A DNA stretch of 64,000 bases, from the NCBI GenBank assembly GCA_964615095.1, contig CAZTPX010000008.1, forward strand, positions 57,361 to 121,360. Direction: 5' to 3'. The first letter of the stretch is position 1; each line of letters starts with the position of its first letter. The translations under genes and the position numbers were made by a program. The notes beneath the pieces were generated by a model that worked only from the letters and a program-made list of their open reading frames with translations, was not told the origin of the DNA and ran no database searches. This document shows positions 11,249 through 61,475 of this stretch, piece after piece. The stretch comes from an uncultured Planctomycetaceae bacterium (GTDB lineage: Bacteria > Planctomycetota > Planctomycetia > Pirellulales > Thermoguttaceae).

Positions 11249-11536
11249 ATGGAACGGCAAGAGGAGGCCCAGCGGCGCGAGGTTTGCTACTCGGGAAGGG
11301 TTCAAGGCGTCGGATTCCGCTATACGGCCCGCTCCATCGCCCGCGGGTTCGCGGTCACCGGATACGTCAAGAATCTCTCCGACGGCCGCGTCCAACTGGT
11401 GGTTGAAGGTCGGCCGGAGGAGATTCGCGGGTTGCTTGGCGAGATCCAAAGCGAGATGGGCCACTACATTCGCGATGTGCAGGAAACTTCGTCGCGGGCA
11501 ACCGGAGGTTTTTCAGGTTTCGATGTGCGGTTTTGA
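11249..11536 (+). CDS. acyP: acylphosphatase
   Basis: The in-frame ATG at 11249 gives MERQEEAQRREVCYSGRVQGVGFRYTARSIARGFAVTGYVKNLSDGRVQLVVEG, the classic acylphosphatase signature (V.G.VQGVGFR ... G.V.N..DG.V). Confidence 0.85.
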   Translation: MERQEEAQRREVCYSGRVQGVGFRYTARSIARGFAVTGYVKNLSDGRVQLVVEGRPEEIRGLLGEIQSEMGHYIRDVQETSSRATGGFSGFDVRF

Positions 11537-11551
11537 TAGGAAGCAATAATC

Positions 11552-17701: not shown

Positions 17702-17935
17702 AGACTGCCTAGTCTTCCTCCCTTCTGTAATAAACTCCAAATAATTAGGCGTTTTTCCTAGCAATTCGCCTTGATTGGGGGCGACGGTTTGGGTATTTTT
17801 CGCCGTCCGTATATTTGTCTCATCAAAGAATGTCTGCGCGTCTCTTCTAGCAACCGCTACCACTACCGAATGGGCCACTGCCGTTGTCGTCGGATGTTCG
17901 CAACTGCGGCGTGTGCTCTGCGGGAAAGGGCCTAC

Positions 17936-46725: not shown

Positions 46726-48378
46726 TTACGGGCAGGGACGGGAAAGCAGGTGCGGGCAGTCGGGGGCCATGCCGGGCGGCCGCGAGGTATCGACCGGACC
46801 CGGTTGGCCGACAGGACGGTCGCACACGAGGATGCGGGCCGGATAGCCCAAGGCCCGATAGAGTTGGAATTGGGCGCGATTGTAATTGTTGATGGCGGTG
46901 AAGTAGAGATCGTAAGACCGTTTCATTTCCTGCAGCGCGGCGACCGCTTCCTGAGGGCGGTTGATCAGTTCCAGCAGTCCGCCGGCAGCGCGGGTCTGGC
47001 CAATCCCGATAAGCGTGCCATTGTAGGTAATGACCGACTCCCGCACCGTGGTCTTGGCGGATTCGACCTGCAAGTCGGCCGCCTCCAGGTTGGCGCGGGC
47101 CTCGACGACTTCCTGCGCCACGCGGTCTTGCGTATCGGCCAGGTCGATACAGGCCCTTTGTTCCTGGGCCACGCGCTCGTGTACGCGGGCCCTGTTTCCC
47201 AGGCCAAGATTGTCGAGCGTCCAGACGGCGCCCACTTCCATGTCGAACCGCCCGCCGTAGAGATGCGTGCCGTCGTCGGGACCGCCGCCGAAGACGCCGC
47301 CGTTGAAATAGCCGCCCGGTCCGGTGCCTTGCATCACCACCGTGGGCAGCAGCGGCCGGACCCGCTCCTGCCGCACACGTTGCTCGCTGGCTTGCACCAA
47401 GGCCCTTTGCGACGACAATTCCGGCCGGTTGGCCAGACCCACCGGAATCAGGTCGGCAACCGCCAAGCGCGGCGAGATCATGGCGATCTGAAGATGTGGC
47501 GGTTCCAGGGGAACGACCACGGCGCCGGGGTTCAATCGCAGCACGCGGGCGAGTCGCGAACTGGCAATCCGCCAGTTGGCCCGCGCGGCGATGGCCTGCT
47601 GCTGCAAATCGAATTCCAGGGCCCGCACCCGATCGATCTCATTCCGCGACACCAACCCCCCGGCAAGGCCCGTCACTTTGCGGGCCAGGACCTCGGACTT
47701 CTCTACCGCATCCAGGGCGCCGGCCAACGTGCCGCGGGCCTGCTGCACGTCGAAGTATGCCACGGCCACCGTGAACAGGGCGTCGTTGCGCGCAGCCTGA
47801 AGATCGGCCTCGCGGGCCGCCAAATTCTGCCGGGCGACCAATGGGACGAAGATGGCGTCGGTGATACCGAAGTCCAGAGTCGCCCCGCCACCCGTAGCAA
47901 AGGCGCTCTTGTTGTCGCGAATGATCGTGCCATCCGTCGATTGGTCAAGCCCGGTGTGCCGGTAGAAGTCGGTACCGAAATTGAGGTTCGGCAACCCGAG
48001 TACCCTGGCACTTTGCAGCAAGGCAGCCGCCTCTTCCACGCTGCTGCGGGCCGCGGCGATGACCAGCGGGCGGGCGTTGGACAGGTACAGGGCCGTGGGC
48101 AGGTTGATCGGCAAGGGCTGGTCCGTTGCCGCGGGTTGGGCCGGTTGCATCTGGGGCGGTTGTGTGTTCTCGCTGAGGACGGGGCACCCGAGGACTTGGC
48201 CGGGCCCGGTATAGACCGGGACCAATCCTTGCGGCATGCCGACCTGCGGGGGCGGAGGGGCAACCTCCTCGGGACGACCGGGGTCGTAAGGTGGGGCCGC
48301 CAGGGCGATGGTTCCGCCGACCAACAATATGCACACACCGATTAGATATCGTGACATCATTGTCTTTCGAGGCAGCAT
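46726..48378 (-). CDS. TolC-like outer membrane efflux protein (OMF family)
   Basis: Track ORF 46726..48453. Its first 25 codons are a REP palindrome. The in-frame ATG at 48378 (or 48360) gives the signal peptide ...MMSRYLIGVCILLVGGTIALAAPP. Two internal OEP repeats (LPTALYLSNARPLVIAAARSSVEEAAALL..., SSQRALVQASEQRVRQERVRPLLP...). Confidence 0.75.
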   Translation of the reverse strand: MLPRKTMMSRYLIGVCILLVGGTIALAAPPYDPGRPEEVAPPPPQVGMPQGLVPVYTGPGQVLGCPVLSENTQPPQMQPAQPAATDQPLPINLPTALYLSNARPLVIAAARSSVEEAAALLQSARVLGLPNLNFGTDFYRHTGLDQSTDGTIIRDNKSAFATGGGATLDFGITDAIFVPLVARQNLAAREADLQAARNDALFTVAVAYFDVQQARGTLAGALDAVEKSEVLARKVTGLAGGLVSRNEIDRVRALEFDLQQQAIAARANWRIASSRLARVLRLNPGAVVVPLEPPHLQIAMISPRLAVADLIPVGLANRPELSSQRALVQASEQRVRQERVRPLLPTVVMQGTGPGGYFNGGVFGGGPDDGTHLYGGRFDMEVGAVWTLDNLGLGNRARVHERVAQEQRACIDLADTQDRVAQEVVEARANLEAADLQVESAKTTVRESVITYNGTLIGIGQTRAAGGLLELINRPQEAVAALQEMKRSYDLYFTAINNYNRAQFQLYRALGYPARILVCDRPVGQPGPVDTSRPPGMAPDCPHLLSRPCP

Positions 48379-48405
48379 CGCCCCGGCACGAAAGACTCTC
48401 ACTCT

Positions 48406-48448
48406 AACCCGAAGCGTAAGCGAAAGCCCCTCGCTTGCGCTTCGGGTT
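48406..48448. repeat. REP-like palindrome (aacccgaagcgtaagcga ... tcgcttgcgcttcgggtt)
   Basis: 18-bp arms with 1 mismatch. Same family at 50647-50700, 57613-57637 (half copy) and 57697-57762. Confidence 0.8.
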
Positions 48449-48589
48449 GGCATTGATCAACTTGGTTGCCGGGGTAATATCGCCCCCCTTTTTCGGGAAC
48501 CGAAGATTACGACTTTATCCATCTTTCGGATTGTATCGGAAAAGGCGGGGCCGCTAGCGGTGAAATAACGGTGCTTCCGATGCAGGTTG

Positions 48590-48810: not shown

Positions 48811-49347
48811 TCACGGCTGTACTCCACGGAGCTTGGCCAAATCGTGCGCGTGGCCGTTGGATCGCCAGTATACTTGCGCAACATCAATTTTGTACTCCAC
48901 GGAGCCTAGTGCGAGAGGGTCGCAGACATTGAGAACTTCGTTCACTGCGGCCTGCGCCAATTGGCGGACATAGTAGGACCGCGCGGAACCCCGGATCACG
49001 ATCCGGCCGTCGCGTCTTTCGACCGATAATTCGTTGATCCGACCAGCGGTGCGATTGGTGATCCACTGCGCCAGGCATTCGTCGAAATCGGCAAGCGAGG
49101 GGGAGGGAACCGGCGAGTTCTGCGGTTCATCCGCCGCAAGGCGATCTGGCGGAACATCGCTGCTTGCCGGCGGGCAATTGCCGCTGCCTTGGACCCGATC
49201 CCGCACCTCACGGCGATGGACGGGAATATCGGCGGGGGCAGAAATCCCCAGGCGCACGCGTGTCTTGCCCACGTCCACGACGTCGATGGTAATGCCCCGC
49301 TCGGGAAAAACAACTTGTTCGCCGATCTTACGCGTAAATACCAGCAT
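48811..49347 (-). CDS. csrA: CsrA/RsmA RNA-binding domain fused to a ~125-aa C-terminal extension (BON-like end)
   Basis: The in-frame ATG at 49347 gives MLVFTRKIGEQVVFPERGITIDVVDVGKTRVRLGISAPADIPVHRREV, a canonical CsrA fold sequence. It is followed by a Pro/Ser linker and ...INELSVERRDGRIVIRGSARSYYVRQLAQAAVNEVLNV.... Confidence 0.75.
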   Translation of the reverse strand: MLVFTRKIGEQVVFPERGITIDVVDVGKTRVRLGISAPADIPVHRREVRDRVQGSGNCPPASSDVPPDRLAADEPQNSPVPSPSLADFDECLAQWITNRTAGRINELSVERRDGRIVIRGSARSYYVRQLAQAAVNEVLNVCDPLALGSVEYKIDVAQVYWRSNGHAHDLAKLRGVQP

Positions 49348-49456
49348 CTGGAAGTCCTTTCTGACGTGGGTTTGCACTACGACGGAATTTGCTCCGGCAG
49401 CGTTTGAGGCACAGGTGATTCATGGCAGGGAGTCCCTCCTGGCGATGCGCTGACAA

Positions 49457-49882
49457 TCAGGCACGCTCCATTCTGGCGGGAAAAGGCGGCAGGCCCATGC
49501 GCAGCGACTCGCTGCATTCGGCAACCCGCCGTCCAAGGGTGCGATCGACAATCTGTCTCAACTCGGCCAGGTCATCGGCTTTCGCGACACATGCCGTGGC
49601 CAACAGCGCGCGGTCGTCGCGCAGGCAATCCTCGTCATGCGCGGTGAAAAGGATCACCGGCGTCCGGGGGGAAAGACTCTTGATTTGCGCAAGCGTATCC
49701 AGCCCGCTGCAGCGAGGCATGGAAATGTCGAGGATCGCCAGGTCCGGCGTTTCCGCGATGAACATTTCCAGGGCCTCGACCCCGTCGCGTGCGAGGACTA
49801 CGCGATATCCTTCGTCTGTAAACGCCGCGCGGCAGTACTCGCGGATGTTCTTGTGGTCGTCGGCAAAGAGAATGGTTTTCAT
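49457..49882 (-). CDS. single-domain response regulator (CheY-like receiver)
   Basis: MKTILFADDHKNIREYCRAAFTDEGYRVVLARDGVEALEMFIAETPDLAILDISMPRCSGLDTLAQIKSLSPRTPVILFTAH. Confidence 0.8.
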   Translation of the reverse strand: MKTILFADDHKNIREYCRAAFTDEGYRVVLARDGVEALEMFIAETPDLAILDISMPRCSGLDTLAQIKSLSPRTPVILFTAHDEDCLRDDRALLATACVAKADDLAELRQIVDRTLGRRVAECSESLRMGLPPFPARMERA

Positions 49883-49939
49883 TCGGAAGAATACTCACGT
49901 TGTCTTGTAGTTCTCGTAAGAATCGTCAGGAAACCGGCT

Positions 49940-50392
49940 TTATTTTGAAAATGTATCCGCGGCGAACATGTCAGTGACTTTTCGCTCCTCATGTTCGATC
50001 TTGAGCCAGTCCAGCCAGCCGTGGGCCTTTGCCGCCTCGGTCGCGTGATGCTCAGCCCGGGCCGCACAGCGACGCACTTGCTCATCGCTGGTTCCCTCTC
50101 CAAACAGCACTTTGACCCGAATCGTGTCCGGTTTAGACGCGTCGTACAAATAATGCACGGCAACTCCGCCCGTCACGCGCTGGCTGTTGGCCAACGCCTG
50201 GCGGGAATTGAGCAGCAGACACAACCACTCGCCTTTCGTCGGAGTGTAAGGTGATGCGCCTCTTCGATCCTTGTCGGATCCAGTTTGAGAGGCAGCTAGC
50301 AACGTCGCCACAAACAGCGATGCCGCGCCACAAGACACAATCCAAACAACGGTCCGCCAAGCGAACCGCGACCGATTTGCCGATGCGTTCAT
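49940..50392 (-). CDS. hypothetical membrane-anchored protein, 150 aa
   Basis: In-frame ATG at 50392 with GGAGG RBS. MNASANRSRFAWRTVVWIVSCGAASLFVATLLAAS (signal/anchor). No family recognised. Preceded by a sigma-54 promoter. Confidence 0.6.
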   Translation of the reverse strand: MNASANRSRFAWRTVVWIVSCGAASLFVATLLAASQTGSDKDRRGASPYTPTKGEWLCLLLNSRQALANSQRVTGGVAVHYLYDASKPDTIRVKVLFGEGTSDEQVRRCAARAEHHATEAAKAHGWLDWLKIEHEERKVTDMFAADTFSK

Positions 50393-50438
50393 GGGGCTAC
50401 CTCCGGTAAAGCAGGAATTGTTGTATGGTCCCCGGGTA

Positions 50439-50454
50439 AGCATTCCCCGTGCCA
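50439..50454 (-). promoter_or_regulatory. sigma-54 promoter (minus-strand TGGCACGGGGAATGCT)
   Basis: Matches TGGCACG-N4-TTGCW at all core positions except one T. Correct GG-N10-GC spacing. The -12 end lies 46 nt upstream of the ATG at 50392. Identical 16-mer at 51390-51405. Confidence 0.75.
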
Positions 50455-50550
50455 GATTGCCGTATGTTTCCGATAAGGAGCGTAAGTTTCAATGCTCTCG
50501 CAGTTTAGGAAAAGAATAATCCTGGCTGCGGACGTCCAGGTTCGCTCTTG

Positions 50551-50568
50551 CCGTCCAGGTTTGGACGG
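50551..50568 (-). promoter_or_regulatory. candidate enhancer (UAS) palindrome CCGTCCA-AACC-TGGACGG
   Basis: Perfect 7-4-7 palindrome starting 114 nt upstream of the TGGCAC of the 50454 promoter. Half-site repeat acctggacg lies 10 nt downstream. Homologous sites with the same spacing occur at 51503-51520 and 57844-57861. Confidence 0.6.
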
Positions 50569-50621
50569 CGGTTCCGGGAAATCGTCCGAAAACCGACGCT
50601 GGCCCTGGAGGGAGCCGTTAC

Positions 50622-50745
50622 ACTGTTCGCGGGCGAAAATGATCGAAACCCGACGCGTAAGCGAGGAATCTAATCCGTTACCTCGCTTACGCATCGGGTT
50701 ACGACCGCCACCTAGAAGAACGTATCATTTTCGCCCGCGAACAGT
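50622..50745. repeat. nested palindromic element (22-bp perfect outer arms)
   Basis: actgttcgcgggcgaaaatgat (50622-50643) is the exact reverse complement of 50724-50745. The inner hairpin aacccgacgcgtaagcgagg ... cctcgcttacgcatcgggtt belongs to the 48406 family. Confidence 0.85.
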
Positions 50746-50888
50746 ATAAGAAAGCAGCCGGTACAAGGCATGTGGCGGCTGCTTTTCTCGCGACACCTGT
50801 TGCTTCGTGGGTCCCAATCGCGATCGTTCCGTCGTCAACACCGAATCTTGGTCCCCTGGGACCCGCAAGTCCTCCGAGGCCCGTCCCG

Positions 50889-51332
50889 TCACTCATTGTA
50901 GAAATCTTCCAGGTCCTGCGACCATCCAGAGTTCGCGGAGTTCACGCACGGCGGCGGGGCCACGTACGTCGGCGGCGGAGCCGCCACGGCAGTTGGTGGG
51001 AGCGACGGCGCCGGCATGCTCGGGTTGTCAATCGGACGCGCCGCGGTGTACGTCGTTGGGTGACCCGAGCCGGCGGCTACCGCGTCGAGAACGACAAAAG
51101 TAATCTGACCGGTCTTCGCGTCGAGCAATACGTCTTTGATCCGGCCGATTTTTTGGCCCTGCGAATCAAGCACCGTCGTGCCCGTCAGCGCAGAGACCCG
51201 AATGGTCCCTGCCGAGCCTTGCATCGGCGACCGGTCTTGGCCGATGTTTGGCGCCGCCGCGCTTGCCAGCGATGCTCCCAAAAGAAGCACTGCGGCAAAG
51301 GCAGCCAGTGAAAAAGTCCAACGCGCGATCAT
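50889..51332 (-). CDS. secreted PRC-barrel domain protein
   Basis: Signal peptide MIARWTFSLAAFAAVLLLGASLASAAA. VSALTGTTVLDSQGQKIGRIKDVLLDAKTGQITFVVLD is the PRC-barrel signature. Pro-rich C-terminus. Preceded by a sigma-54 promoter. Confidence 0.7.
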   Translation of the reverse strand: MIARWTFSLAAFAAVLLLGASLASAAAPNIGQDRSPMQGSAGTIRVSALTGTTVLDSQGQKIGRIKDVLLDAKTGQITFVVLDAVAAGSGHPTTYTAARPIDNPSMPAPSLPPTAVAAPPPTYVAPPPCVNSANSGWSQDLEDFYNE

Positions 51333-51389
51333 GTTCTACCCCTTTCAAAAAGTGTTAGATAACCGTTGTCAACGCGTTAGCTGTTCGTT

Positions 51390-51405
51390 AGCATTCCCCG
51401 TGCCA
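51390..51405 (-). promoter_or_regulatory. sigma-54 promoter (minus-strand TGGCACGGGGAATGCT)
   Basis: 16-mer identical to 50439-50454. The -12 end lies 57 nt upstream of the ATG at 51332. Confidence 0.75.
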
Positions 51406-51502
51406 ATTCGAAGCATGCTTCCGCCATGGAACCACAAGTGCTGACGCTGCCGCAAGTTAGGACCGCGGCAATCCTGACGAAAGACTCTGATGCGCCTCTC
51501 TG

Positions 51503-51520
51503 CCGTCCAGATTTGAACGG
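51503..51520 (-). promoter_or_regulatory. candidate enhancer (UAS) palindrome CCGTTCA-AATC-TGGACGG
   Basis: Starts 115 nt upstream of the TGGCAC at 51405. One mismatch to a perfect palindrome. Conserved caggatt block 44 nt downstream, as in the other two modules. Confidence 0.6.
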
Positions 51521-51712
51521 AGGCAACAAAAAAAGTGTCGGAATATGGACGGAAGCCTGGGAGAGAGCGCGTTGCGGTTTCGGTCGCTTCACGTTGATCA
51601 GCAACGACTTACAAGATTTCCGTCGAACACAATGCACACGCCCGACCGAGAGGCATGGTATTTGCGTCAAGTCCTTGTAAGTGTCCGCAGGGGCTCCGCC
51701 CCTTCAGCCGGA

Positions 51713-52006
51713 ATGGCTATCGATTTGCGGGATGAGGCCATCCGCCATTTGGAAGTGACGGTCGTGTTAGCGCCGAGGACTGGTGAATACCTGTGCGCGT
51801 GGGCCGAGGCCTACGAATTGGCTGCGAGGAATGAAGAGAGCCTCGCCGTAATCCAGTGGGCCATTACTCTGAACCCTGCCGTAGACAAGTATTACCGAGT
51901 GCTAGCCAGTGTTGCCTCGAAAACAGGGGCCTACCGCCTGTATAACCAGGGCCTACTGGGAATGGTCGGGAGCAGCGGATGTTGCAGTCATGTCCACAAA
52001 TCATAA
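51713..52006 (+). CDS. possible small helical (TPR-like) protein; weak call
   Basis: Track ORF 51545..52006, whose 5' part overlaps the promoter module of the neighbouring gene. The internal ATG at 51713 gives MAIDLRDEAIRHLEVTVVLAPRTGEYLCAWAEAYELAARNEESLAVIQWAITLNPAVDKYY.... Poor RBS. Confidence 0.25.
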   Translation: MAIDLRDEAIRHLEVTVVLAPRTGEYLCAWAEAYELAARNEESLAVIQWAITLNPAVDKYYRVLASVASKTGAYRLYNQGLLGMVGSSGCCSHVHKS

Positions 52007-52039
52007 AGAGAGAAATCCTTCCTACGAAAGGGGAAAACC

Positions 52040-53098
52040 ATGTCCAGGAAACTACTTTTCGGAAGAGCGTCGTTGATCGCGATCTTGCTTGTCGCGCTCT
52101 CAACCGGTGTGTCGTTTGCGCGCGGAGGTGGAGGCGGAGGTCATGGAGGAGGCGGAGGCTTTGGCGGAGGTGGATTTCGTGGGGGTGGTTGGGGTGGAGG
52201 TTATAGAGGCGGGATGCGGGCCGGCTCGTTCGGTTCCATCGCCCCGTCCCACGCCTTCAGCGGTGGTGAATTTGGCCGCGCCGGAACAGGTATGGGCTAT
52301 GGCGGCCACTTTGGCAACGGTTACGGCGGATACGGCAACCGATACGGCAGCTACTTTGGCCGCGGCGGTTACGGCGGCTATGGTGGTTGGGGGTGGGGCG
52401 GTTACGGGTTGGGCTGGGGTTTGGATTGGGGGTATCCGTATGATTATGATTACGGCTACTACTACCCAGACACGGGTGACTATTACTATTCCTACGCGCC
52501 GACTAGTTCTGTCGACAGCAGCGTGACGGCTCCTCAACAGTTTGCGGACTCAGCAGAAATTGCACCGACGATCACGTCGGACCCGCAGCAAGGGGCCAAC
52601 GAAGCCCTTCAGTTCTACTCCGAGGCGCGAGCGGCCTTCCTGCAGGGTGATTACAAAGACGCCCTGCGTCTGGGAGGCCATGCCGCCGTGGATGCGCCAC
52701 AGAATCCTAAAGCTCACGAACTGATTTCGTTGGCCTTGTTCGCCTCGGGCAAATATGCCCCCGCGGCCAGCGAGGCGCATGCGGCGATGGCCTTGGGAAC
52801 GATTGCCGGCTGGAACGACCTGTACGCCTACTACAACAACGCCGACAAATACACGACTCAGTTGCGCGCTTTGGAAAAGGCGGTAGCTGCCAATCCCAAG
52901 GATGCAGCGGAGCGTTTCCTGCTGGGGTATCACTACTTGATGATCGGTGCCCGCGACAACGCGAAAACCGAGCTTGCCGAGGCCGCCAAGTTGACGCCAA
53001 AGGACAAGCTTGCCGGCCACTACCTCCAGCAACTCCAGTCGAACTCGCCGCTCACGCCTCCGCAGATGGCGGCACGACCACAAGGCAAGGCGCTTTGA
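52040..53098 (+). CDS. secreted Gly/His/Trp/Tyr-rich protein with conserved TPR-like C-terminal domain (paralog 2)
   Basis: MSRKLLFGRASLIAILLVALSTGVSFARGGGGGGHGGGGGFGGGGFRGGGWGGGY...GGYGGYGGWGWGGYGLGWGLDWGYPYDYDYGYYYPD.... C-terminal blocks NEALQFYSEARAAFLQGDY, SEAHAAMALGT and FLLGYHYLMIGARDNAKT. Confidence 0.75.
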   Translation: MSRKLLFGRASLIAILLVALSTGVSFARGGGGGGHGGGGGFGGGGFRGGGWGGGYRGGMRAGSFGSIAPSHAFSGGEFGRAGTGMGYGGHFGNGYGGYGNRYGSYFGRGGYGGYGGWGWGGYGLGWGLDWGYPYDYDYGYYYPDTGDYYYSYAPTSSVDSSVTAPQQFADSAEIAPTITSDPQQGANEALQFYSEARAAFLQGDYKDALRLGGHAAVDAPQNPKAHELISLALFASGKYAPAASEAHAAMALGTIAGWNDLYAYYNNADKYTTQLRALEKAVAANPKDAAERFLLGYHYLMIGARDNAKTELAEAAKLTPKDKLAGHYLQQLQSNSPLTPPQMAARPQGKAL

Positions 53099-53186: not shown

Positions 53187-54515
53187 ATGTCGAGAGAACT
53201 ATTCTTTGGAAGAGCGTCGTTTATTGCGGTCGCAATCGTTGCGCTGTGTGCGAGTTTGTCGCTTGCGCGTGGTGGCGGAGGGCACGGAGGTGGCGGAGGG
53301 CATGGAGGAGGAGGAGGCCATGGAGGAGGTTTTCACGGCGGCGGAGGGCATGCAGGCGGTGGTTTTCGTGGCGGTAGTTCGCACGCCGGGGGCAGCGCGA
53401 TGCATGCCGGCTCGTTTGGGTCGATCTCCCCTTCACACGCAGGGAGCCGCGGTCAGTTCGCCCACGGTGGCAACTTCGGCGGTCGCCCTGGAAGTACCTT
53501 CGCCGGCCGCGCCGGCAGTGGCTTCGCCGGTCGTGCCGGCAGCGCCTTTGCCGGCCGCTATGGGAACAACTTTGCCGGCCGCTCCGGCAATTGGGCCGGC
53601 AACCATGCGTGGGACAACTACTTCCGCCGCGGCGGCTACGGTGGCTATGGTGCCTACGGTGGTTACGCCGGCTGGGGAGGTTACGGCGGCTATGGTGGTT
53701 GGGGGTGGGGCGGTTACGGGCTGGGATGGGGCGGTTATTGGCCCTGGTATGGCGGCTGGGGTTTGGCTTTGGGGTCATGGGGATACCCCAATAACTACGG
53801 CTACTATTATCCCGATGCCAGTTACTATTCCTACACGCCGAACGATTATTCTACCTACGTTCCATCGGACTATTATTCCTCCTCTGCGCCATCTGTTTAT
53901 GTTGACGGCAGCGCAGTCGCGAATCAGCAGTTTGCGGACTCATCGGCAATAGCGCCGACGATCGCCGAGGAAGGCAGCCCGGCAGGCGGTCCTGCCCAGG
54001 ACCAGTCAGGAACCAGCGAAGCGATGAAGTTCTACTCCGAATCGCGCACGGCCTTCCTGCATGGCGATTATCAAAACGCCCTGCGGTTGGCAACCCATGC
54101 CGCCGTGGATGCGCCGCAGAATGCCAAAGTCCACGAATTGATTTCATTGGCCTTGTTCGCCTTGGGAAACTACGGCCCGGCGGCCGGCGAGGCGCATGCG
54201 GCGATGGCCTTGGGAACGCTTGCCGACTGGAGTGACTTGTACGCCTATTACAACAACGCCGAGAAGTACACCACCCAGTTGCGCGCTTTGGAAACGGCGG
54301 CGGCCGCCAATCCGAAGGACGCAGCGGACCATTTCCTGTTGGGGTATCACTACTTGATGATCGGCGCCCGCGACAACGCGAAGACGCAGTTCGCCGGGGC
54401 GGTGAAACTGGCGCCAAATGACAAGCTTGCCGGCCACTACCTCCAGGAACTCCAGTCCAACGCGCCGCTCACGCCTCCGCAGATGGCGTCAAAGCCACAA
54501 GGCAGGGAGTTGTAA
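53187..54515 (+). CDS. secreted Gly/His/Trp/Tyr-rich protein with conserved TPR-like C-terminal domain (paralog 3)
   Basis: In-frame ATG at 53187 with AAGGAG RBS. MSRELFFGRASFIAVAIVALCASLSLARGGGGHGGGGGHGGGGGHGGGFHGGGGHAGGGF...FAGRAGSGFAGRAGSAFAGRYGNNFAGRSG...GGYGGYGGWGWGGYGLGWGGYWPWYGGWG.... C-terminal domain nearly identical to paralog 2. Confidence 0.75.
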   Translation: MSRELFFGRASFIAVAIVALCASLSLARGGGGHGGGGGHGGGGGHGGGFHGGGGHAGGGFRGGSSHAGGSAMHAGSFGSISPSHAGSRGQFAHGGNFGGRPGSTFAGRAGSGFAGRAGSAFAGRYGNNFAGRSGNWAGNHAWDNYFRRGGYGGYGAYGGYAGWGGYGGYGGWGWGGYGLGWGGYWPWYGGWGLALGSWGYPNNYGYYYPDASYYSYTPNDYSTYVPSDYYSSSAPSVYVDGSAVANQQFADSSAIAPTIAEEGSPAGGPAQDQSGTSEAMKFYSESRTAFLHGDYQNALRLATHAAVDAPQNAKVHELISLALFALGNYGPAAGEAHAAMALGTLADWSDLYAYYNNAEKYTTQLRALETAAAANPKDAADHFLLGYHYLMIGARDNAKTQFAGAVKLAPNDKLAGHYLQELQSNAPLTPPQMASKPQGREL

Positions 54516-54617: not shown

Positions 54618-56051
54618 TTAGGGTTCCGGCAAGTCTTCGCGCGCGTGCATCCCAAATTTCTGCATCCTGGCGTGCAGCGTCGGTCGCGGCATTCCCAACA
54701 GCCGCGCAGCATGCGTCTGATTGCCCTGCGATCGCCGCAATGCCTCCACGATCAAAAGCCTCTCCACCATCCCCAGCAAATCCTCGCTGGCATGCACGCC
54801 ACCGTACGAGGTCAAATACGTTTGGACCAGGTTCAACCACTGCTCTTGGCGGGAAGGATTGGCTTCGCCGGCCGCCGCCTGGGAGTCCGTTCTCACGGTC
54901 CAGGGCAGGTCCTGGGCCTGGATCGTATAGCCTCCGGCAAAGATCATCAGCCGCTGAATCAGGTGTTCCAGTTCCCGCACGTTGCCCGGCCAGGCGTAAT
55001 TCACCAGGGCATCGAGCGCATTTTGGGCCAACGGCGGACGTTCGATACCGGCCGCGCGGGCAAAGCGGCTCAAGAAATAGTCGACCAGAAGGGGAATGTC
55101 GTCGCGCCTTTCCCGCAATGGCGCAAGCTGCAAGGTGACCACGTTGAGGCGGTGGTAAAGGTCATCGCGAAAGCCGCCCGCGGCAATCGCCCGTTCCAAA
55201 TCGCGGTTGGTGGCGCAGAGCACGCGCACGTCGGACTGGATCGTTTCATTGCCGCCCAGCCGCTGGAAGGTCCCGTCTTGCAAGACCCGCAGGATCTTGG
55301 CCTGGACCATAAGGGGAATGTCGCCGATTTCATCCAGGAGGATCGTCCCGCCGTGGGCTTGTTCGAACTTTCCGATCCGCCGCGTCATGGCGCCGGTGAA
55401 TGCGCCGGGCTCATAACCGAACAACTCGCTTTCCAGGAGCGTTTCGGGGATGGCCGCACAGTTCACCACAACCAGCGGCATCTTACTCCTGTGGCTATGC
55501 TGATAGATGGCCCGGGCCACCAGTTCCTTTCCTGTGCCCGATTCGCCGCGAATGAGAACGGTCGCATCGGTTGGGGCCACCCGCCCGATGGCCTTGTAGA
55601 GCTGCTGCATCGGCGGACTGCGGCCCACGATGGCGTCGGCCGGCGGCACGACCGTCTCGGGATCCAGGGCGAGGCGGCCCTTCATTAGCCGGGCCGCTTC
55701 TAGCGCCTTGGCGATGGTACGGAGCATTTCCGCCGGCTCAAAGGGCTTCAACAGGTAATCGTAGGCCCCGCGCTTCGTGGCCTCGATGGCCGTATCGGTC
55801 GTGCCCTGGCCGGTCATGACGATCACGGGCAGCGTCGGCCGTAGCTTCCTGATCCGGGCCAGGGCATCTAGGCCGCTCATGCCCGGCAGGCGGATGTCGA
55901 GGATCACCAGTTCCACGCCAGCGTCCTGCAGGCGCCGCATGGCCTCTTCCGCGCCGTGCACGCCGATGACTTCGTGCCCGCGCGTCGCGAGAATCTCTTC
56001 AAACGCCCGCACGACGTTGCGTTCATCGTCAACGACGAGAATCTTGGCCAT
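54618..56051 (-). CDS. NtrC-family sigma-54-dependent response regulator (receiver + AAA+ + Fis HTH)
   Basis: In-frame ATG at 56051 with GGAGGA 6 nt upstream. MAKILVVDDERNVVRAFEEIL...[64 protein letters not shown]. Overlaps the kinase gene by 23 nt. Confidence 0.9.
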   Translation of the reverse strand: MAKILVVDDERNVVRAFEEILATRGHEVIGVHGAEEAMRRLQDAGVELVILDIRLPGMSGLDALARIRKLRPTLPVIVMTGQGTTDTAIEATKRGAYDYLLKPFEPAEMLRTIAKALEAARLMKGRLALDPETVVPPADAIVGRSPPMQQLYKAIGRVAPTDATVLIRGESGTGKELVARAIYQHSHRSKMPLVVVNCAAIPETLLESELFGYEPGAFTGAMTRRIGKFEQAHGGTILLDEIGDIPLMVQAKILRVLQDGTFQRLGGNETIQSDVRVLCATNRDLERAIAAGGFRDDLYHRLNVVTLQLAPLRERRDDIPLLVDYFLSRFARAAGIERPPLAQNALDALVNYAWPGNVRELEHLIQRLMIFAGGYTIQAQDLPWTVRTDSQAAAGEANPSRQEQWLNLVQTYLTSYGGVHASEDLLGMVERLLIVEALRRSQGNQTHAARLLGMPRPTLHARMQKFGMHAREDLPEP

Positions 56052-57543
56052 GGCCATCCTCCGAAGCAATGGGCAACCAAATGGCGAAGGTCGTGCCTTT
56101 TTCTGTCGAAGATTCCAACACGAGTCCGCCGCCGTGCGCGGCCATGATCTGGGCGGCAATGCACAGGCCCAGGCCCGTGCCTTGTTCCTTCGTGGTGAAA
56201 AAGGGTTCGAAGATGCGGCACTGGACGTCGGGAGGCATGCCGGGGCCCGAGTCGCGGACCCGCAGGACGACCATGGGCCGGCCGTCAGCATCCTTCTCGG
56301 CATTCGAAGTGATACGGATTTCACCTCCACCGGCCATGGCGTCCGCGGCGTTGCCCAACAGATTCAGCAAGACCTGTTTGAGCTGCGCCGCGTCGGCCAT
56401 GACGGGCGGCAACGGGGAGCGGGGTGTGCAGGTTATCCTGATTTTCTCGCCTTGGAAACGCGGCCCAAGAAGCTCCTGCGTCTGATCGAGCACCGCGCCG
56501 ACGTCATGTGGCTGACAATCAAGCGTCCGCGGACGGGAAAACTCAAGGAAATCCCTGACAATGCTCTCCAACCGCGAAATCTCTTCCGAGATAATACCCA
56601 GTTTTCGCGCCAAGTCGGCGTTTCCCTGGACGGCCTCTCGGACCGAGAAGAGCCACATCTTCATGGCCGTGAGCGGATTGCGGATTTCGTGGGCCACGCT
56701 GGCCGCGAGCTTGCCCACGGAGGCAAGCTTCTCGGCGACCAGGAGCTGGTTGCGGCTCCTTTCCAATCGAGAGCGCGTATCGCTCACATCCGACATCAAG
56801 TTGCGAAGGTGATTTCCCATAATACGCAATTCGTCTTCCTCGGATCCTTTGTCGTGCGCATGGCGATCGCCACGGTAGGATTGAGCATCTGCGACCATGC
56901 CGCGCAGTGGAAAAAGCACTCGATAGAAAAACAGCCAAAGCAGAAGGCCGCCCAAGAGGAGCGTCAACGTGCTGGATACGCCGACCACCCAGGTGCTCTG
57001 ACGCATCCGGCGGCCGGCCCGCTCGATGCTCTTGCCGCCGGCCTGGGCGTGGATGGCAGCCAACTGGCCGCAGAGACGGCGGGCTTCCGGGGAAAGGCGG
57101 CCCTCGACCTCCGTGAACAGGATTTTCTTGGCCCGTTGCGTTTCGCCTCGCTTGTCAAGTGCCAGCACTTCTTCCCATCGGGCCTGGAGGTCGGCCAAGG
57201 TCGTCTTGAATTGGGAAATGGCGTCCGTTTCTTCGTTTGAAACGGGAATCGTATCGTCGATTGCCGCCGTCCAGTCTCGAAAACGAGGTTCCAAGTCGCG
57301 GAATCTGTTCTCCCAAGCCGGGTTGCCCTTGTCCAGAAGACATGAGGCAATCAGGTTGTTACCCTCCAGGATCGCTGTTTCCACCTCTTCGGCGCGGAGG
57401 CTGGGAAGATTCTGCTGGATGGCCTCTTGCAGGCGAAAGTGGACGCGCAAGGCGGCGTATAAGGTTACGAGGCTGCTCAGGATTGCGAGCGCGACGACCC
57501 CCAGGATCGTCATGGAGAACTTCGTTGCTAGACTCCAACGCAT
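56029..57543 (-). CDS. sensor histidine kinase (two TM segments, periplasmic helical sensor, HisKA + HATPase_c)
   Basis: MRWSLATKFSMTILGVVALAILSSLVTLYAAL (TM1). WVVGVSSTLTLLLGGLLLWLFFY (TM2). H-box KLAASVAHEIRNPL. N and G boxes LLNLLGNAADA, RDSGPGMP and GTGLGL. Confidence 0.9.
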   Translation of the reverse strand: MRWSLATKFSMTILGVVALAILSSLVTLYAALRVHFRLQEAIQQNLPSLRAEEVETAILEGNNLIASCLLDKGNPAWENRFRDLEPRFRDWTAAIDDTIPVSNEETDAISQFKTTLADLQARWEEVLALDKRGETQRAKKILFTEVEGRLSPEARRLCGQLAAIHAQAGGKSIERAGRRMRQSTWVVGVSSTLTLLLGGLLLWLFFYRVLFPLRGMVADAQSYRGDRHAHDKGSEEDELRIMGNHLRNLMSDVSDTRSRLERSRNQLLVAEKLASVGKLAASVAHEIRNPLTAMKMWLFSVREAVQGNADLARKLGIISEEISRLESIVRDFLEFSRPRTLDCQPHDVGAVLDQTQELLGPRFQGEKIRITCTPRSPLPPVMADAAQLKQVLLNLLGNAADAMAGGGEIRITSNAEKDADGRPMVVLRVRDSGPGMPPDVQCRIFEPFFTTKEQGTGLGLCIAAQIMAAHGGGLVLESSTEKGTTFAIWLPIASEDGHGQDSRR

Positions 57544-57696: not shown

Positions 57697-57762
57697 ATAC
57701 TAAGCGCGAAGCCTAAGCGAGGCAACGACTTCCGATCCTCGCGTATGCTTCGCGCTTAGTAT
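57697..57762. repeat. REP-like palindrome (atactaagcgcgaagcctaagcgagg ... cctcgcgtatgcttcgcgcttagtat)
   Basis: ~26-bp arms with 2-3 mismatches. Half copy gcccctcgcttgcgcttcgg at 57613-57637. Same family as 48406. Confidence 0.75.
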
Positions 57763-57843
57763 TGCCTACCTGTCCTGCCAGGGCAATACCTTCCGCCACA
57801 AAGACTCCTTACGTGTCCATTTTCTGACAATTGTGTGCCGTCA

Positions 57844-57861
57844 CCGTCGAAATCCGGACAC
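57844..57861 (+). promoter_or_regulatory. candidate enhancer (UAS) CCGTCGA-AATC-CGGACAC
   Basis: Starts exactly 114 nt upstream of the TGGCAC at 57958. Similar to the UAS at 50551-50568 and 51503-51520. tgggatt lies 44 nt downstream, at the same offset as caggatt in the other two modules. Sits in the divergent region shared with the kinase-regulator operon. Confidence 0.5.
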
Positions 57862-57957
57862 CGAGGCACGAACCTGAGAAGGTTTCCTGGGATTAGCGAT
57901 GTCATATTCTCTGACAGCATCGTGACTTCCACCAAATATTAGAAAAATACTGCAAGC

Positions 57958-57973
57958 TGGCACGCGAAATGCA
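57958..57973 (+). promoter_or_regulatory. sigma-54 promoter (TGGCACGCGAAATGCA)
   Basis: Matches TGGCACG-N4-TTGCW with one mismatch in the -12 box. Correct GG-N10-GC spacing. Lies 212 nt upstream of the RND transporter ATG. Confidence 0.7.
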
Positions 57974-58184
57974 ATTGGCCAACGCAACGATTCCCGGGAA
58001 GGACCGGTAAATCCATGTTTATATCAGTGTACTGCCAAGTGTGCGGATCGTTGTGTCGGTCAGCGGCCTATAATTTAATGGTTTGGGTTAGTCATTTCAG
58101 TTCTCGACGTGATTTCGTCCGGATTAAACACACACCGATTCAAGCTGAGTAGTCCCGTCCCCCCCGTTTTGCGCCCATAGCCTC

Positions 58185-61100
58185 ATGAATTTAACAGAAT
58201 TCGCAATGCGGCGGCCGATTACGCTGGCCATGTTCGTCGTGGCCGTGATTGGCGGGGGCGTGCTGGCGCTGCTCGGAATGCGGGTCGACATCTTCCCGTC
58301 GATCAACGCCCCGCAAATCTACGTGGTAAACAACTATGCCGGCATGTCGCCCGACCAGATCGAGGGCATCGTCACCAACGTCTACGAGCAGAATTTCCAG
58401 TATGTCGACGGCATCAAGGCCATCGAATCCAAGAACATTCAGAACTTCGTCCAGCTCAAGCTCACCTTCTATCCCGGCACCGACATGGCGGCGGCGATGT
58501 CGCAGGTCGTCAGCCTCACGAACCGGGCCAGGGGGCAGATGCCGCCCAGCGTGCTGCCGCCCTTCGTGATCCGTTTCGACGCGGCCAGCGTGCCCATCGG
58601 CTACCTGGTGCTGGAGAGCAAGAGCGATCCGCCCCGGCCGCTGGGCGAACTGGCCGACTTAGGGCTGTTCCGCATCCGCCCCACGCTGATCGCGGAAGTG
58701 CCGGGCACGGTGGCCTTCTCGCCCTACGGCAGCAACACGCGGGCCATCGTCGTCACGGTTGACCCCGATCGCCTCCGCGCCCACAATCTCTCGCCTGAAG
58801 ACCTGGTTTCGGCCCTGGAGACCGGGAACGTCGTCGTGCCGTCGGGCAACGTGTACACGCCGACGCAGACGCCGCTGGTGCCCACCAACGCCATGGTGGC
58901 CGATCCGCAAGAGATGGGTAAGATCCCCATCCAGCTCGGCAAGAATGTCTATCTTCGCGACGTGGCCACCATCGAGGACACGACCGATATCAACTATGGT
59001 TGCGCGCTGGTCAATGGCCGCAAGTCGATCTTCATCCCCGTGGTGAAGAAGGATACGGCCTCGACGCTCACGGTGGTCCGCCAGATCCACGACACCATGC
59101 CCAAGTTCAAGTTGCTCGTGCCCGCGGACGTGGACGTCCGCTACGCGTTCGACGAATCGCCGACGGTGCGGGCGGCCATCCAGAGCGTGCTCACCGAAGG
59201 GGTCATCGGCGCGGGGTTGACGGGACTCATGATCCTCTTGTTTCTGCACGACCTCCGCAGCGTGCTGGTGGTCCTGATCAGCATCCCCTTGTCCTTGACC
59301 AGTTCGCTGGTCGGCCTGTGGCTGACGGGCAACACGATCAACATCATGTCGCTGGGCGGCCTGGCCCTGGCCATCGGCATCCTCGTCGACGAGGCGACGG
59401 TCACTATCGAAAACACCCATGCCCAGATGCGGCACACGCATTCCATCGCCCGGGCCGCGCGCCGAGCGAACGCCGCCACCAACACGGCGCGGCTCTTGGC
59501 CATGCTCTGCATCCTCTCGGTGTTCATTCCCACGCTCATCCTCAACGAGCCGGTCCGCTCGCTGTTCATGCCCTTGACGCTGGCCGTGGGCTTCGCCATG
59601 GTCGCCTCCTACCTCTTGTCCAGCACGCTCGTACCCGTGCTCACCGTGTGGCTTGTGAAGCACGTGGGCGGGCACGGCGGGCAGGCCGGAAAGTCGCTCT
59701 TCGATCGCTTCCTGGATGTCTTTGTAAGAATCGTGTCGGCCGCGGTGCGCTGGCGGTGGATTGTGGTGGGGACCTATCTGGCCGCCTGCGCCGCGCTCTT
59801 CTGGCCGCTTTATGGCCAAGTGGGAAAGGAGTTGTTTCCCGAGGTCGATTCGGGCCAGTTCGTGCTGCGTTTCCGCGCCCCACCGGGGTCCGAATACGAA
59901 CTAACGCGGCGCTGCGCCGTGAAGATCCTCGAGATCATCGACGAGGAGAGCCACGGCAACCTGGAAATGTCCATCGGCTACACGGGCCTGGGGTCCACCA
60001 ACACGGCCACGAACAACATCCTGCTGTTCATGCGGGCCAGTGACGACGGCGTGCTCCGCGTGCGCCTGAAAGAGAATAGCGGCGTGGCGGTGGCCGACCT
60101 CCAAGAGCGTTTGCGCACGGTCCTGCCCGATAAGGTCGGCCCCTGGCTGCAAGCGTACCTGGAAAAGCACGGCTGCTCGCCCACGGAAGCACAGGCCCGC
60201 GTGCGGCAGATCTCCTTCGGGTTCGAGCCGGGCGACATCGTCAGCACCGTGATGAGCTTCGGTTCTCCCAATCCGGTCGAACTGCTGGTCATTGGACCGG
60301 ATCGGAACGCGGTCCGAGCGCATGCCCAGCGGCTCCTGGCGGAAATGAAGAAGATCCCCGAACTGCGCGACGTGCAACTATACCAGCAGCTAGATTATCC
60401 CACGGTGCGCGTCAACATCGACCGGGAGAAGGCCGGGCTGAGTGGCGTGGCCGTCAAGGACGTGACCGACGCCCTCCTGGTGGGCACGTCCTCCAGCCGC
60501 TACGTGGTCAGAAACTACTGGCGCGATCCCCACTCGGGGGTCGATTACCAGGTGCAGATCCAGGTTCCCACGCAACGCATGGACCGGCCGCAACAGGTGG
60601 AGAACCTGCCCATCCGCAAGGTGGACGCCGACAGCAATCTGCTCGTTCGCGACGTGGCCAGCGTCGAGCCCGGCCAGACGCCGGGCGAGATCGACCGCAG
60701 CGCTATGCAGCGTTACCTGAGCATCACCGCCAACGTTCAAGGCGGCGACCTGGACCGCGCCGCAAGCGGCATCGACCAGGCCATCGCCGATGCCGGCGAC
60801 CCTCCCCGCGGCGTGCATGTGAGCGTCCGCGGGCAGGTGGCGCCGATGACCGAGATGTTCCGCTCCCTGAGCATTGGCCTGGGGCTTTCCGTGGTAGTGA
60901 TCCTGGTGTTGTTGACCGGGTTCTTCCAGTCGTTCCGCATCGCGCTCGTATCCCTCGGCGGCGTGCCGGGAGTGGTCCTGGGCGTGCTCGCGATGCTGCT
61001 CTGCACGCGGACCACGTTGAACATCGAGTCGTTCATGGGCTCGATCATGTGTATCGGCGTCTCGGTGTCGAACTCGGTGCTGTTGTCGACCTTCATGGAC

Positions 61101-61475
61101 GACCATTGGGGCGGCGGCGCATCGGCGCATCAAGCCGCCATCGAGGGGGCCCGCGACCGCCTGCGTCCGATCCTCATGACCGCCAGCGCCATGGTCTTGG
61201 GCACGGTGCCCATGGCCTTGGCCCTGGAGGAAGGCAGCGGCATGACCGCGCCCCTGGGACGGGCCGTGATCGGCGGCCTGTTGGTTTCCACCTTCGCCAC
61301 GCTGTTGATCGTGCCCGCCATGTTCGCGATCGTCATGGGCAACTCAAAGAAAGTATCGCCTTCGGTCGATCCCGACGACACCTCCAGCCGGCACTTCGAA
61401 CCGCACGGTTTCAAGACTGCGGCCGTCCACGGCGGTCCTCCGCCGGACGAAACTCCACCCCCTTCCGGGAGTTGA
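58185..61475 (+). CDS. RND-family efflux transporter permease (AcrB/CzcA superfamily), 1096 aa
   Basis: MNLTEFAMRRPITLAMFVVAVIGGGVLALLGMRVDIFPSINAPQIYVV.... 12-TM architecture with two large periplasmic loops. Substrate class not assignable by eye. Confidence 0.9.
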   Translation: MNLTEFAMRRPITLAMFVVAVIGGGVLALLGMRVDIFPSINAPQIYVVNNYAGMSPDQIEGIVTNVYEQNFQYVDGIKAIESKNIQNFVQLKLTFYPGTDMAAAMSQVVSLTNRARGQMPPSVLPPFVIRFDAASVPIGYLVLESKSDPPRPLGELADLGLFRIRPTLIAEVPGTVAFSPYGSNTRAIVVTVDPDRLRAHNLSPEDLVSALETGNVVVPSGNVYTPTQTPLVPTNAMVADPQEMGKIPIQLGKNVYLRDVATIEDTTDINYGCALVNGRKSIFIPVVKKDTASTLTVVRQIHDTMPKFKLLVPADVDVRYAFDESPTVRAAIQSVLTEGVIGAGLTGLMILLFLHDLRSVLVVLISIPLSLTSSLVGLWLTGNTINIMSLGGLALAIGILVDEATVTIENTHAQMRHTHSIARAARRANAATNTARLLAMLCILSVFIPTLILNEPVRSLFMPLTLAVGFAMVASYLLSSTLVPVLTVWLVKHVGGHGGQAGKSLFDRFLDVFVRIVSAAVRWRWIVVGTYLAACAALFWPLYGQVGKELFPEVDSGQFVLRFRAPPGSEYELTRRCAVKILEIIDEESHGNLEMSIGYTGLGSTNTATNNILLFMRASDDGVLRVRLKENSGVAVADLQERLRTVLPDKVGPWLQAYLEKHGCSPTEAQARVRQISFGFEPGDIVSTVMSFGSPNPVELLVIGPDRNAVRAHAQRLLAEMKKIPELRDVQLYQQLDYPTVRVNIDREKAGLSGVAVKDVTDALLVGTSSSRYVVRNYWRDPHSGVDYQVQIQVPTQRMDRPQQVENLPIRKVDADSNLLVRDVASVEPGQTPGEIDRSAMQRYLSITANVQGGDLDRAASGIDQAIADAGDPPRGVHVSVRGQVAPMTEMFRSLSIGLGLSVVVILVLLTGFFQSFRIALVSLGGVPGVVLGVLAMLLCTRTTLNIESFMGSIMCIGVSVSNSVLLSTFMDDHWGGGASAHQAAIEGARDRLRPILMTASAMVLGTVPMALALEEGSGMTAPLGRAVIGGLLVSTFATLLIVPAMFAIVMGNSKKVSPSVDPDDTSSRHFEPHGFKTAAVHGGPPPDETPPPSGS

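Follow-up and report, generated by a model that had tools for sequence, protein, structure and literature searches.

Predicted sigma-54-type control modules repeated upstream of unrelated envelope and efflux genes beside a probable NtrC-family regulator in an uncultured Planctomycetaceae bacterium

The 64,000 nucleotides analyzed here (positions 57,361 to 121,360 of contig CAZTPX010000008.1, assembly GCA_964615095.1), referred to below as the window, come from an uncultured Planctomycetaceae bacterium and carry a putative control module that is repeated upstream of several unrelated envelope and efflux genes, beside the gene of a probable regulator. Three full modules were found: one ahead of a gene for a 150-amino acid (aa) protein, one ahead of a PRC-barrel gene and a third, at 57815-57973 on the plus strand, ahead of an RND efflux operon. 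They align colinearly and without gaps. The conserved unit is about 165 bp long, with two GTC-N8-GAC dyads followed by a -24/-12 promoter, and reaches about 30 bp beyond the first palindrome. An earlier note on this DNA had described a unit of about 135 bp with a single upstream activating sequence; the activating sequence and the promoter are both present, but the unit is longer and holds two dyads, not one palindrome. As a kind of bacterial regulon the arrangement is ordinary, and it is an unusually clear example. The features are listed in Table 1.

What the note had read in the letters was confirmed. The 16-mer TGGCACGGGGAATGCT occurs identically in the 150-aa and PRC modules at the coordinates it gave, and the palindromes CCGTCCAAACCTGGACGG (perfect) and CCGTTCAAATCTGGACGG (one arm mismatch) begin 114 and 115 nt 5′ of TGGCAC. 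The blocks caggatt (50524-50518), cctaaactgcg (50509-50499) and cggaaacatac (50472-50462) match their PRC-side counterparts in the gap-free alignment. The two coding regions are indeed unrelated (BLASTP of the 150-aa protein against the PRC protein, E 0.069), and the PRC-barrel assignment agrees with Pfam. In the RND module, CCGTCGAAATCCGGAC at 57844 and TGGCACGCGAAATGCA at 57958 are again separated by 114 nt.

Single modules were searched against the whole window with nhmmer. The PRC and 150-aa modules matched each other with an E-value of 5e-11 over about 170 nt, the 150-aa and RND modules with 9e-10, and the PRC and RND modules with 2e-6; beyond the three modules, no match in the window fell below E 0.6. 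Because an identical pair of 16-mers is by itself not rare in 64 kb, it is the colinear match of about 165 nt that carries the significance. The string TGGCACGNNNNWTGCW, at one mismatch or fewer, was matched four times in the window against 1.3 expected, with three of the four inside modules, and the palindrome pattern gave four matches (two sites on both strands) against 0.2 expected. Perfect matches to TGGCACG-N4-WTGCW number three in the 64 kb, and all three are accompanied by both dyads. A scan of the module region with Rfam returned nothing, tRNA being found elsewhere only.

Table 1. Features of the modules and neighboring genes in the window. S1 and S2 are the two dyads of a module; a dot marks a feature listed without strand.
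Feature	Coordinates	Strand	Details
Distal dyad S1, 150-aa module	50584..50597	-	GTCGGTTTTCGGAC; starts 143 nt 5′ of T of TGGCAC; fits cross-genome consensus GTCCATTTTCYGAC
Proximal dyad S2, 150-aa module	50551..50568	-	CCGTCCAAACCTGGACGG; perfect palindrome, core GTCC-N6-GGAC
Third element, 150-aa module	50482..50488	-	AACTTAC, 34 nt 5′ of TGGCAC
Sigma-54-type -24/-12 promoter, 150-aa operon	50439..50454	-	TGGCACGGGGAATGCT; predicted start near 50428
Dyad S1, PRC module	51537..51550	.	GTCCATATTCCGAC on minus strand; 145 nt 5′ of minus TGGCAC, 114 nt 5′ of plus AGGCAT
Dyad S2, PRC module	51503..51520	.	CCGTTCAAATCTGGACGG; 18-mer 115 nt, core 113 nt 5′ of minus promoter
Third element, PRC module	51434..51440	-	CACTTGT, 35 nt 5′ of TGGCAC
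Sigma-54-type promoter, PRC-barrel gene	51390..51405	-	TGGCACGGGGAATGCT
Candidate divergent sigma-54 promoter	51651..51666	+	AGGCATGGTATTTGCG; GG/GC spacing correct; shares PRC dyad pair
Distal dyad S1, RND module	57815..57828	+	GTCCATTTTCTGAC; starts 143 nt 5′ of TGGCAC
Proximal dyad S2, RND module	57844..57861	+	CCGTCGAAATCCGGACAC; starts 114 nt 5′ of TGGCAC
Third element, RND module	57924..57930	+	GACTTCC, 34 nt 5′ of TGGCAC
Sigma-54-type promoter, RND operon	57958..57973	+	TGGCACGCGAAATGCA
NtrC-family response regulator, candidate activator	54618..56051	-	Receiver, sigma-54 AAA+ and Fis-type helix-turn-helix; Pfam Sigma54_activat 3.6e-71, Response_reg, HTH_8
Sensor histidine kinase	56029..57543	-	HisKA, HATPase_c, weak 4HB_MCP_1 hit; overlaps regulator gene
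150-aa gene	49940..50392	-	N-terminal membrane helix and small alpha/beta domain; lineage-specific
Single-domain receiver (CheY-like) gene	49457..49882	-	Pfam Response_reg 2.6e-23
CsrA-domain protein with C-terminal extension	48811..49377	-	Pfam CsrA 6.1e-16; next gene, same direction as receiver
Outer-membrane efflux protein	46726..48453	-	Pfam OEP 2.3e-20; downstream of 150-aa/receiver/CsrA genes
PRC-barrel protein gene	50889..51332	-	Signal peptide; Pfam PRC 8.5e-9
97-aa open reading frame, uncertain gene	51713..52006	+	Between divergent promoter and TPR genes; called as gene on contig L003
Exported Gly/His-rich protein, C-terminal TPR repeats	52040..53098	+	Weak TPR hits; signal peptide and GGGGHGGGG repeats in translation
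Second Gly/His-rich TPR protein, paralogue	53187..54515	+	Downstream of 52040..53098
RND efflux permease	58185..61475	+	Pfam ACR_tran 1.9e-180
RND periplasmic adaptor (membrane-fusion protein)	61479..62990	+	TIGR01730 1.2e-42
Terminator-like hairpin, then near-perfect hairpin of ~125 nt	50625..50790	-	Between PRC gene and 150-aa module

In the window modules the two dyads, both GTC-N8-GAC, start 31-32 bp apart, with cores at -112 to -113 and -143 to -145; on the 150-aa side the core of the proximal dyad starts at -112, with the start of S1 31 bp 5′ of it. These dyad-symmetric sites thus fall within the roughly 80-150 bp 5′ of the -24 element looked for in an enhancer, and the two are in helical phase (31-32 bp in the window, 31 or 20 bp in relatives). 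Half-site centers are about 10 bp apart. Dimers sitting on the same side of the helix would account for this geometry.

The promoters themselves have GG and GC ten bases apart in the frame YTGGCACG-N4-TTGCW, with TGGCACGGGGAATGCT used twice and TGGCACGCGAAATGCA once. They are correctly oriented, TGGCAC lying 62 nt (150-aa), 73 nt (PRC) and 227 nt (RND) from the ATG, and a sigma-70-like promoter on the coding strand was predicted ahead of neither the 150-aa nor the PRC gene. The PRC dyad pair probably also serves the divergent promoter at 51651-51666 (plus strand), which would drive the Gly/His-rich TPR genes. For this promoter S1 is the proximal and S2 the distal dyad; the S2 core starts 146 nt 5′ of it, and the distances of 114 and 146 nt mirror the 113 and 145 nt of the PRC side.

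The comparison with related loci covered ±10 kb around eight planctomycete orthologues of the regulator encoded at 54618-56051 and one from outside the phylum (L026, in our numbering of contigs and loci). Orthologues of 60-85% identity are many in metagenome-assembled genomes of Pirellulales and Thermoguttaceae, and the grammar of the modules recurs near orthologues of the kinase/regulator pair (54618-57543; 65-85% identity) in eight related planctomycete genomes. A hidden Markov model built from four modules recovered a copy on which it had not been trained, upstream of the 150-aa orthologue in L009 (E 2.5e-16), and weaker copies in L010 and L012. In a rule-based scan, each of the planctomycete loci yielded tandem dyads together with a sigma-54 promoter. 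Further modules were located in L010, L012, L021, L022, L023, L024, L025, L018 and L020, all intergenic and facing a gene; L018 and L020 are the only clear relatives among eight loci taken from a metagenome scan with the distal-dyad pattern. Nearly identical sequence was also available: over 49901-52100, contigs L003, L005, L007 and L008 match the window at 100% identity and contigs L004 and L006 at 99.2-99.4%.

In the related planctomycete loci the proximal dyad starts 111-118 nt 5′ of the T of TGGCAC (117-118 nt in three modules and 111-115 nt in all the others). The distal dyad is still further 5′, by 31 bp in class A and by 20 bp in class B, about three or two helical turns. The two classes differ by 11 bp, or about one turn. 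The -24/-12 motif is the most invariant part across the 26 aligned modules, which are not all mutually independent. Upstream of the 150-aa orthologues, L023 has the identical 16-mer and L009 has TGGCACAGGGAATGCT, and orthologous promoters precede the PRC genes of L021 and L009. Divergent pairs of promoters, symmetric about one dyad pair, are present in the window, L021 and L009, and the rule-based scan gave further pairs in L022 and L023. The equivalents of the divergent promoter are AGGCACAGCACTTGCA in L021 and AGGCATGCATTTTGCA in L009, of the AGGCAC/AGGCAT type and about 65 nt before the divergent gene, which encodes a Gly-rich TPR protein in L021 and a 486-aa protein without a Pfam hit in L009. 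The recurrence of the same dyads, promoter and distances beside a regulator orthologue in eight related genomes supports the reading, already offered by the earlier note, of a -24/-12 sigma-54 promoter with sites for an enhancer-binding protein. The genome-wide pattern search that it had proposed, run in slightly relaxed form on 185,579 species genomes, gave only two unrelated matches, the proximal-dyad pattern being too strict and the source species lying outside the collection.

The genes that follow modules are of a limited number of kinds. The receiver-CsrA pair is the target in L012, L022, L025 and probably L024, and a receiver gene alone, the rest being unread or different, in L018, L020, L021 and L023. 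Modules also precede the 150-aa gene, PRC-barrel genes (L009 and L021), Gly-rich TPR genes (L012, L021, L022 and L023) and RND pumps; BON, VWA, DUF1598 and cytidylate-kinase-like genes are targets in single genomes. The TPR-kinase-regulator operon itself has a module ahead of it in L012. Ahead of the cytidylate-kinase-like gene, in L010, a class-A dyad pair is followed by two sigma-54-like strings that overlap each other (TTGGCCCACATGGCATTGTATGTGCT; 17697-17740, minus strand).

The candidate activator has an intact receiver aspartate, Walker A motif and GAFTGA motif. A protein with the GAFTGA, Walker and DNA-binding features of an enhancer-dependent activator is thus encoded 3-7 kb from the modules, and this linkage is kept in relatives, in which the regulator gene lies within about 10 kb of modules in every case and the kinase-regulator pairing is kept in all loci. 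The N-terminus of the kinase is a four-helix-bundle sensor region. Scores of the regulator against the NCBIfam equivalog models stayed below the cut-offs for NtrC (497.8 against 558.6 bits), AtoC (448.7 against 714), ZraR (392.4 against 760) and GlrR (329 against 763), and its nearest solved relatives are Aquifex NtrC1 and NtrC4. By these measures the protein is classed as a member of the NtrC family and as none of the named orthologues. Its helix-turn-helix is nearly invariant among orthologues of 69-85% identity, alongside an unchanged dyad consensus. In L026, a Handelsmanbacteria relative, the regulator is 62% identical and its helix-turn-helix has changed; two sigma-54 promoters there (7190-7375 and 11410-11595) are preceded by a different repeated motif (GTGTCAG...CTG.C), which may reflect co-variation of protein and site.

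Taken together, these data suggest, with a probability that we put at about 0.78, that the modules make up one local regulon, which an NtrC-type two-component system controls through enhancer-dependent sigma-54 promoters. Several observations weigh against this. The three main promoters have ATGC for TTGC in the -12 region, one departure each. The divergent promoter (AGGCAT...) fits the consensus less well than the other three and lies about 390 nt from the first TPR gene in this genome. The E. coli IHF consensus WATCARNNNNTTR, at one mismatch or fewer, was matched in none of the four window spacers (at two mismatches, there are matches at one shared offset in two window modules). The organism is known from metagenome contigs only, and rpoN is not encoded in the 64-kb window, which does encode a second GAFTGA sigma-54 activator, of the GAF type, at about 14538-16103 (plus strand); an unlinked activator is a further possibility. 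Finally, since the related loci were selected for carrying the regulator, the proximity of modules to it is partly circular there. Unbiased linkage comes from the window only, where three or four modules lie within 8 kb of the regulator and none in the other 50 kb or so.

It is on the identity of the binder that the most plausible alternative differs: the promoters would be sigma-54 promoters and the dyads activator sites, but they would be bound by the GAF-type activator (about 14.5-16.1 kb) or by an unlinked one. We consider this unlikely. A scan of the window placed neither dyads nor modules near the GAF-type gene, although that gene does supply a second GAFTGA protein; the modules accompany orthologues of the kinase/regulator pair in nine genomes, with the near-invariant helix-turn-helix noted above, and the L012 module stands before the operon of the regulator itself, although L023 has another Sigma54_activat gene nearby. 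Of the two regulators that the earlier note had named, synteny favors the NtrC-type over the GAF-type protein.

Recent copying of a promoter cassette, or a dispersed or mobile repeat, could also make the modules alike, the spacer blocks being leftover ancestry. The colinear, gap-free alignment of the three modules agrees with such an origin, as does the 16-mer that is identical in two of them whereas PRC orthologues elsewhere differ at two to three positions; moreover, the RND module is nearer to the 150-aa than to the PRC module, as expected of copying at an operon split. However, in the spacer of about 95 nt the paralogous window modules are 40-53% identical and thus no closer than orthologous modules, which are 42-58% identical and come from genomes with regulators of 74-85% identity (shuffled sequences, about 25-27%), and the identity matrix shows no clustering of modules by genome. 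This argues for a common constraint, not for the residue of a recent copy; the term "duplicated" in the earlier note is therefore misleading, and the matrix gives no support to recent duplication or gene conversion as the origin of the similarity. The window has exactly three full copies, all placed at promoters, as are the copies in relatives, so that the dispersed repeat at non-promoter sites that the note had named as its refuting case finds no support in the sequence at hand. The modules are without flanking terminal repeats or transposase, and conservation is concentrated in positioned blocks. We regard an origin by copying or as a mobile repeat as distinctly improbable.

That the dyads bind a conventional non-AAA+ repressor or activator, with the real enhancer elsewhere or the TGGCAC elements unused, is scarcely credible: dyad symmetry alone does not identify the binder and the -12 element departs from TTGC, but enhancer-dependent promoters are marked by just such features, namely a fixed distance of about 112 nt to the -24/-12 motif, two phased dyads and use in both directions. 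A repressor site would be expected to overlap the promoter, and the -24/-12 motif is the most invariant part of all 26 modules.

A third conserved element lies between the dyads and the promoter. The motif A[CG]TT[GCA]C occurs at -35 to -31 from TGGCAC in 13 of the 26 modules, against 0.18 expected (maximum of 3 in 2000 shuffles), and one helical turn further 5′ (-44) in three more. The earlier note had placed a possible architectural-protein site in this region. A conserved, positioned element does exist, but the best-conserved candidate is ACTTRC at about -34, and not caggatt or cctaa; it is plausible as a factor-binding or bend element, although it does not fit the IHF consensus of E. coli.

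Under the two-component reading that we prefer, the membrane histidine kinase (56029-57543) would phosphorylate the NtrC-family regulator (54618-56051), whose dimers would bind the two 14-bp dyads (GTC-N8-GAC, GTCCAWWWYCYGGAC-like consensus) on the same helix face. Of these, the proximal dyad starts about 112 nt 5′ of the T of TGGCAC, and another 31 bp separates it from the start of the distal dyad. The bound dimers would assemble into an ATPase ring; the intervening 95 bp or so would loop, possibly aided by a factor at the ACTTRC element, and the ring would remodel the closed complex of sigma-54 RNA polymerase at TGGCAC-N5-WTGC of four promoters. The units so controlled would be (1) the 150-aa, receiver and CsrA genes, (2) the PRC-barrel gene, (3) the RND pump with its adaptor and, probably, (4) the Gly/His-rich TPR genes, divergent from the PRC dyad pair. 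The signal is likely an extracytoplasmic or envelope cue, because of the sensor topology of the kinase and the exported or efflux targets.

Several known systems resemble this arrangement. At glnAp2 of enteric bacteria, NtrC has two strong dyads about three helical turns apart, some 110-140 bp 5′ of a sigma-54 promoter. Shared with the window are a histidine kinase and its partner, the receiver-AAA+-Fis helix-turn-helix activator, a pair of dyads near -110 and -140 on one helical face, the -24/-12 promoter and weaker conserved elements in the DNA between. The differences lie in the site (GTC-N8-GAC here, TGCACC-N5-GGTGCA there), in a regulator below the NtrC equivalog cut-off, in envelope, efflux and regulatory targets instead of nitrogen assimilation, and in the 20-bp class beside the 31-bp one. 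GlrR (QseF) acts at the paralogous promoter regions of glmY and glmZ; besides its sigma-54 promoter, either region contains two IHF sites and three TGTCN10GACA sites (PMC3045617). There, too, a promoter grammar is repeated at several loci and conserved in a clade, with a GTC...GAC-like dyad, conserved elements between activator sites and promoter, and envelope-related physiology. The arms are 8 nt apart here and not 10, the sites are two and not three, IHF consensus matches are absent, and the downstream genes are mutually unrelated, unlike the homologous glmY and glmZ.

In ZraSR-zraP (HydHG), a sigma-54 two-component system, the activator sites lie between divergent genes and the protein under control is small and periplasmic. 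A 2025 survey considers ZraR in Planctomycetota (PMC12316311). Like this system, ours has a kinase/activator pair beside its targets, divergent sigma-54 promoters sharing sites, and small exported targets; unlike it, the regulator is far below the ZraR cut-off, the kinase has a four-helix-bundle sensor region, no evidence of a metal signal was obtained, and the window showed no promoter directed at the kinase gene. For the phylum itself, the same in-silico survey reports that csrA and CheY-like genes of Planctomycetia are enriched for sigma-54 promoters in their upstream regions (PMC12316311); it cites Studholme and Dixon, who reportedly studied Pirellula sp. strain 1 in silico in 2004. CsrA proteins and single-domain receivers are thus target classes predicted to be sigma-54 dependent in the same phylum; those surveys apparently scored promoters only. 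Described here, and apparently new, are the tandem dyads with the site model drawn from them, the two spacing classes, the use of an enhancer in both directions and the link to a single kinase/regulator pair.

A bolder version, tentative and in our view rather doubtful, is that the modules follow an enhancer-promoter grammar specific to planctomycetes, with an architectural factor of its own replacing IHF, the receiver and CsrA-domain protein as invariant output, and the kinase/activator pair heading a cascade. The elements of that grammar would be the near-fixed proximal dyad, the distal dyad at exactly two or three turns, the mirror-symmetric use, and ACTTRC at -34 (or -44). If this were true, post-transcriptional control, efflux and the secreted Gly/His-rich proteins would all be coupled, through the cascade, to a signal from outside the cytoplasm.

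Planctomycetota have seen almost no experimental work on gene regulation, and for this uncultured Pirellulales-like lineage sequence alone yields a complete and testable wiring diagram, from the sensor kinase and its activator through the binding site and its spacing rules to the promoters and their target genes. One signal would tie together the 150-aa family, the PRC-barrel protein, the Gly/His-rich TPR proteins, the RND pump and the receiver/CsrA pair. Annotation of the regulon in related genomes can draw on the site model (tandem GTC-N8-GAC about 112 nt 5′ of TGGCAC), and the two spacing classes with the bidirectional enhancer offer a natural experiment on helical phasing. The understanding of how sigma-54 promoters work is unchanged; the finding will not surprise a specialist and is useful as a test system.

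Among the target genes, the 150-aa protein has 48 homologues, all 48 hypothetical, and had no Pfam or NCBIfam hit; its AlphaFold2 model (mean predicted local distance difference test score 77.7) gave TM-scores of 0.25-0.4 in a fold search of the PDB, with no match at E ≤ 1e-3. The receiver gene, which directly follows a module in relatives, is probably co-transcribed with it, and the receiver-CsrA pair adjoins the regulator in most of the related loci fetched. The CsrA protein (48811-49377) has a C-terminal extension of about 120 aa with a weak BON-like hit; CsrA proteins of relatives at the same position are 76-188 aa long and always come after a single-domain receiver gene.

The identical PRC-barrel protein is found on 19 metagenome contigs. 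The leader of its gene is conserved in three genomes (window 51333-51389, minus strand; L021 13130-13187; L009 14872-14927), with two CTAAC motifs about 20-25 nt apart ahead of the ribosome-binding region. Given the CsrA-type protein in the same regulon, this leader may be a site of post-transcriptional control. Just 5′ of the PRC promoter, at 51413, the 99%-identical contigs L004 and L006 are without one base, which changes the dyad-promoter distance from 115 to 114 nt, as in the other two modules; this may be a real variant or an assembly error.

On the divergent side, the 97-aa open reading frame had no Pfam hit and no counterpart in L021, in which about 65 nt separate the promoter from the TPR gene. 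The start codon of this reading frame overlaps with another sigma-54-like string, TGGCTATCGATTTGC (51714-51728, plus strand), which lies 63 nt 3′ of the divergent promoter and had no counterpart among the orthologues examined. Both Gly/His-rich paralogues have long Gly-rich N-terminal regions with GGGGHGGGG and Tyr/Trp-Gly repeats, followed by TPR. TPR proteins without another domain hit follow modules in L012, L021, L022 and L023; the N-terminus in L021, the only one read among the relatives, resembles that of the 52040-53098 protein.

The RND permease scored below every NCBIfam subfamily cut-off, so that no metal or drug substrate class is claimed; a heavy-metal (CzcA/CusA) identity was rejected, being under the cut-off while generic RND models score higher. 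A 45-aa open reading frame (58015-58152, plus strand), whose ATG is aligned with the start codons of the other modules, had no supporting evidence and was taken as chance. It contains Cys, and its start lies 58 nt past the RND promoter; without it, the RND leader measures about 200 nt.

Between the PRC gene and the 150-aa module, the fold of 50800-50610 has an energy of -110 kcal/mol (z -10.5), and this stable hairpin region supports separate transcription units. Long near-perfect hairpins lie just 5′ of two modules, at 50625-50760 and 57700-57760, and have the common core TAAGCGAGGYAACG, which at two mismatches or fewer was matched five times against 1.4 expected. They may be a repetitive extragenic palindromic (REP)-like element or a terminator/insulator.

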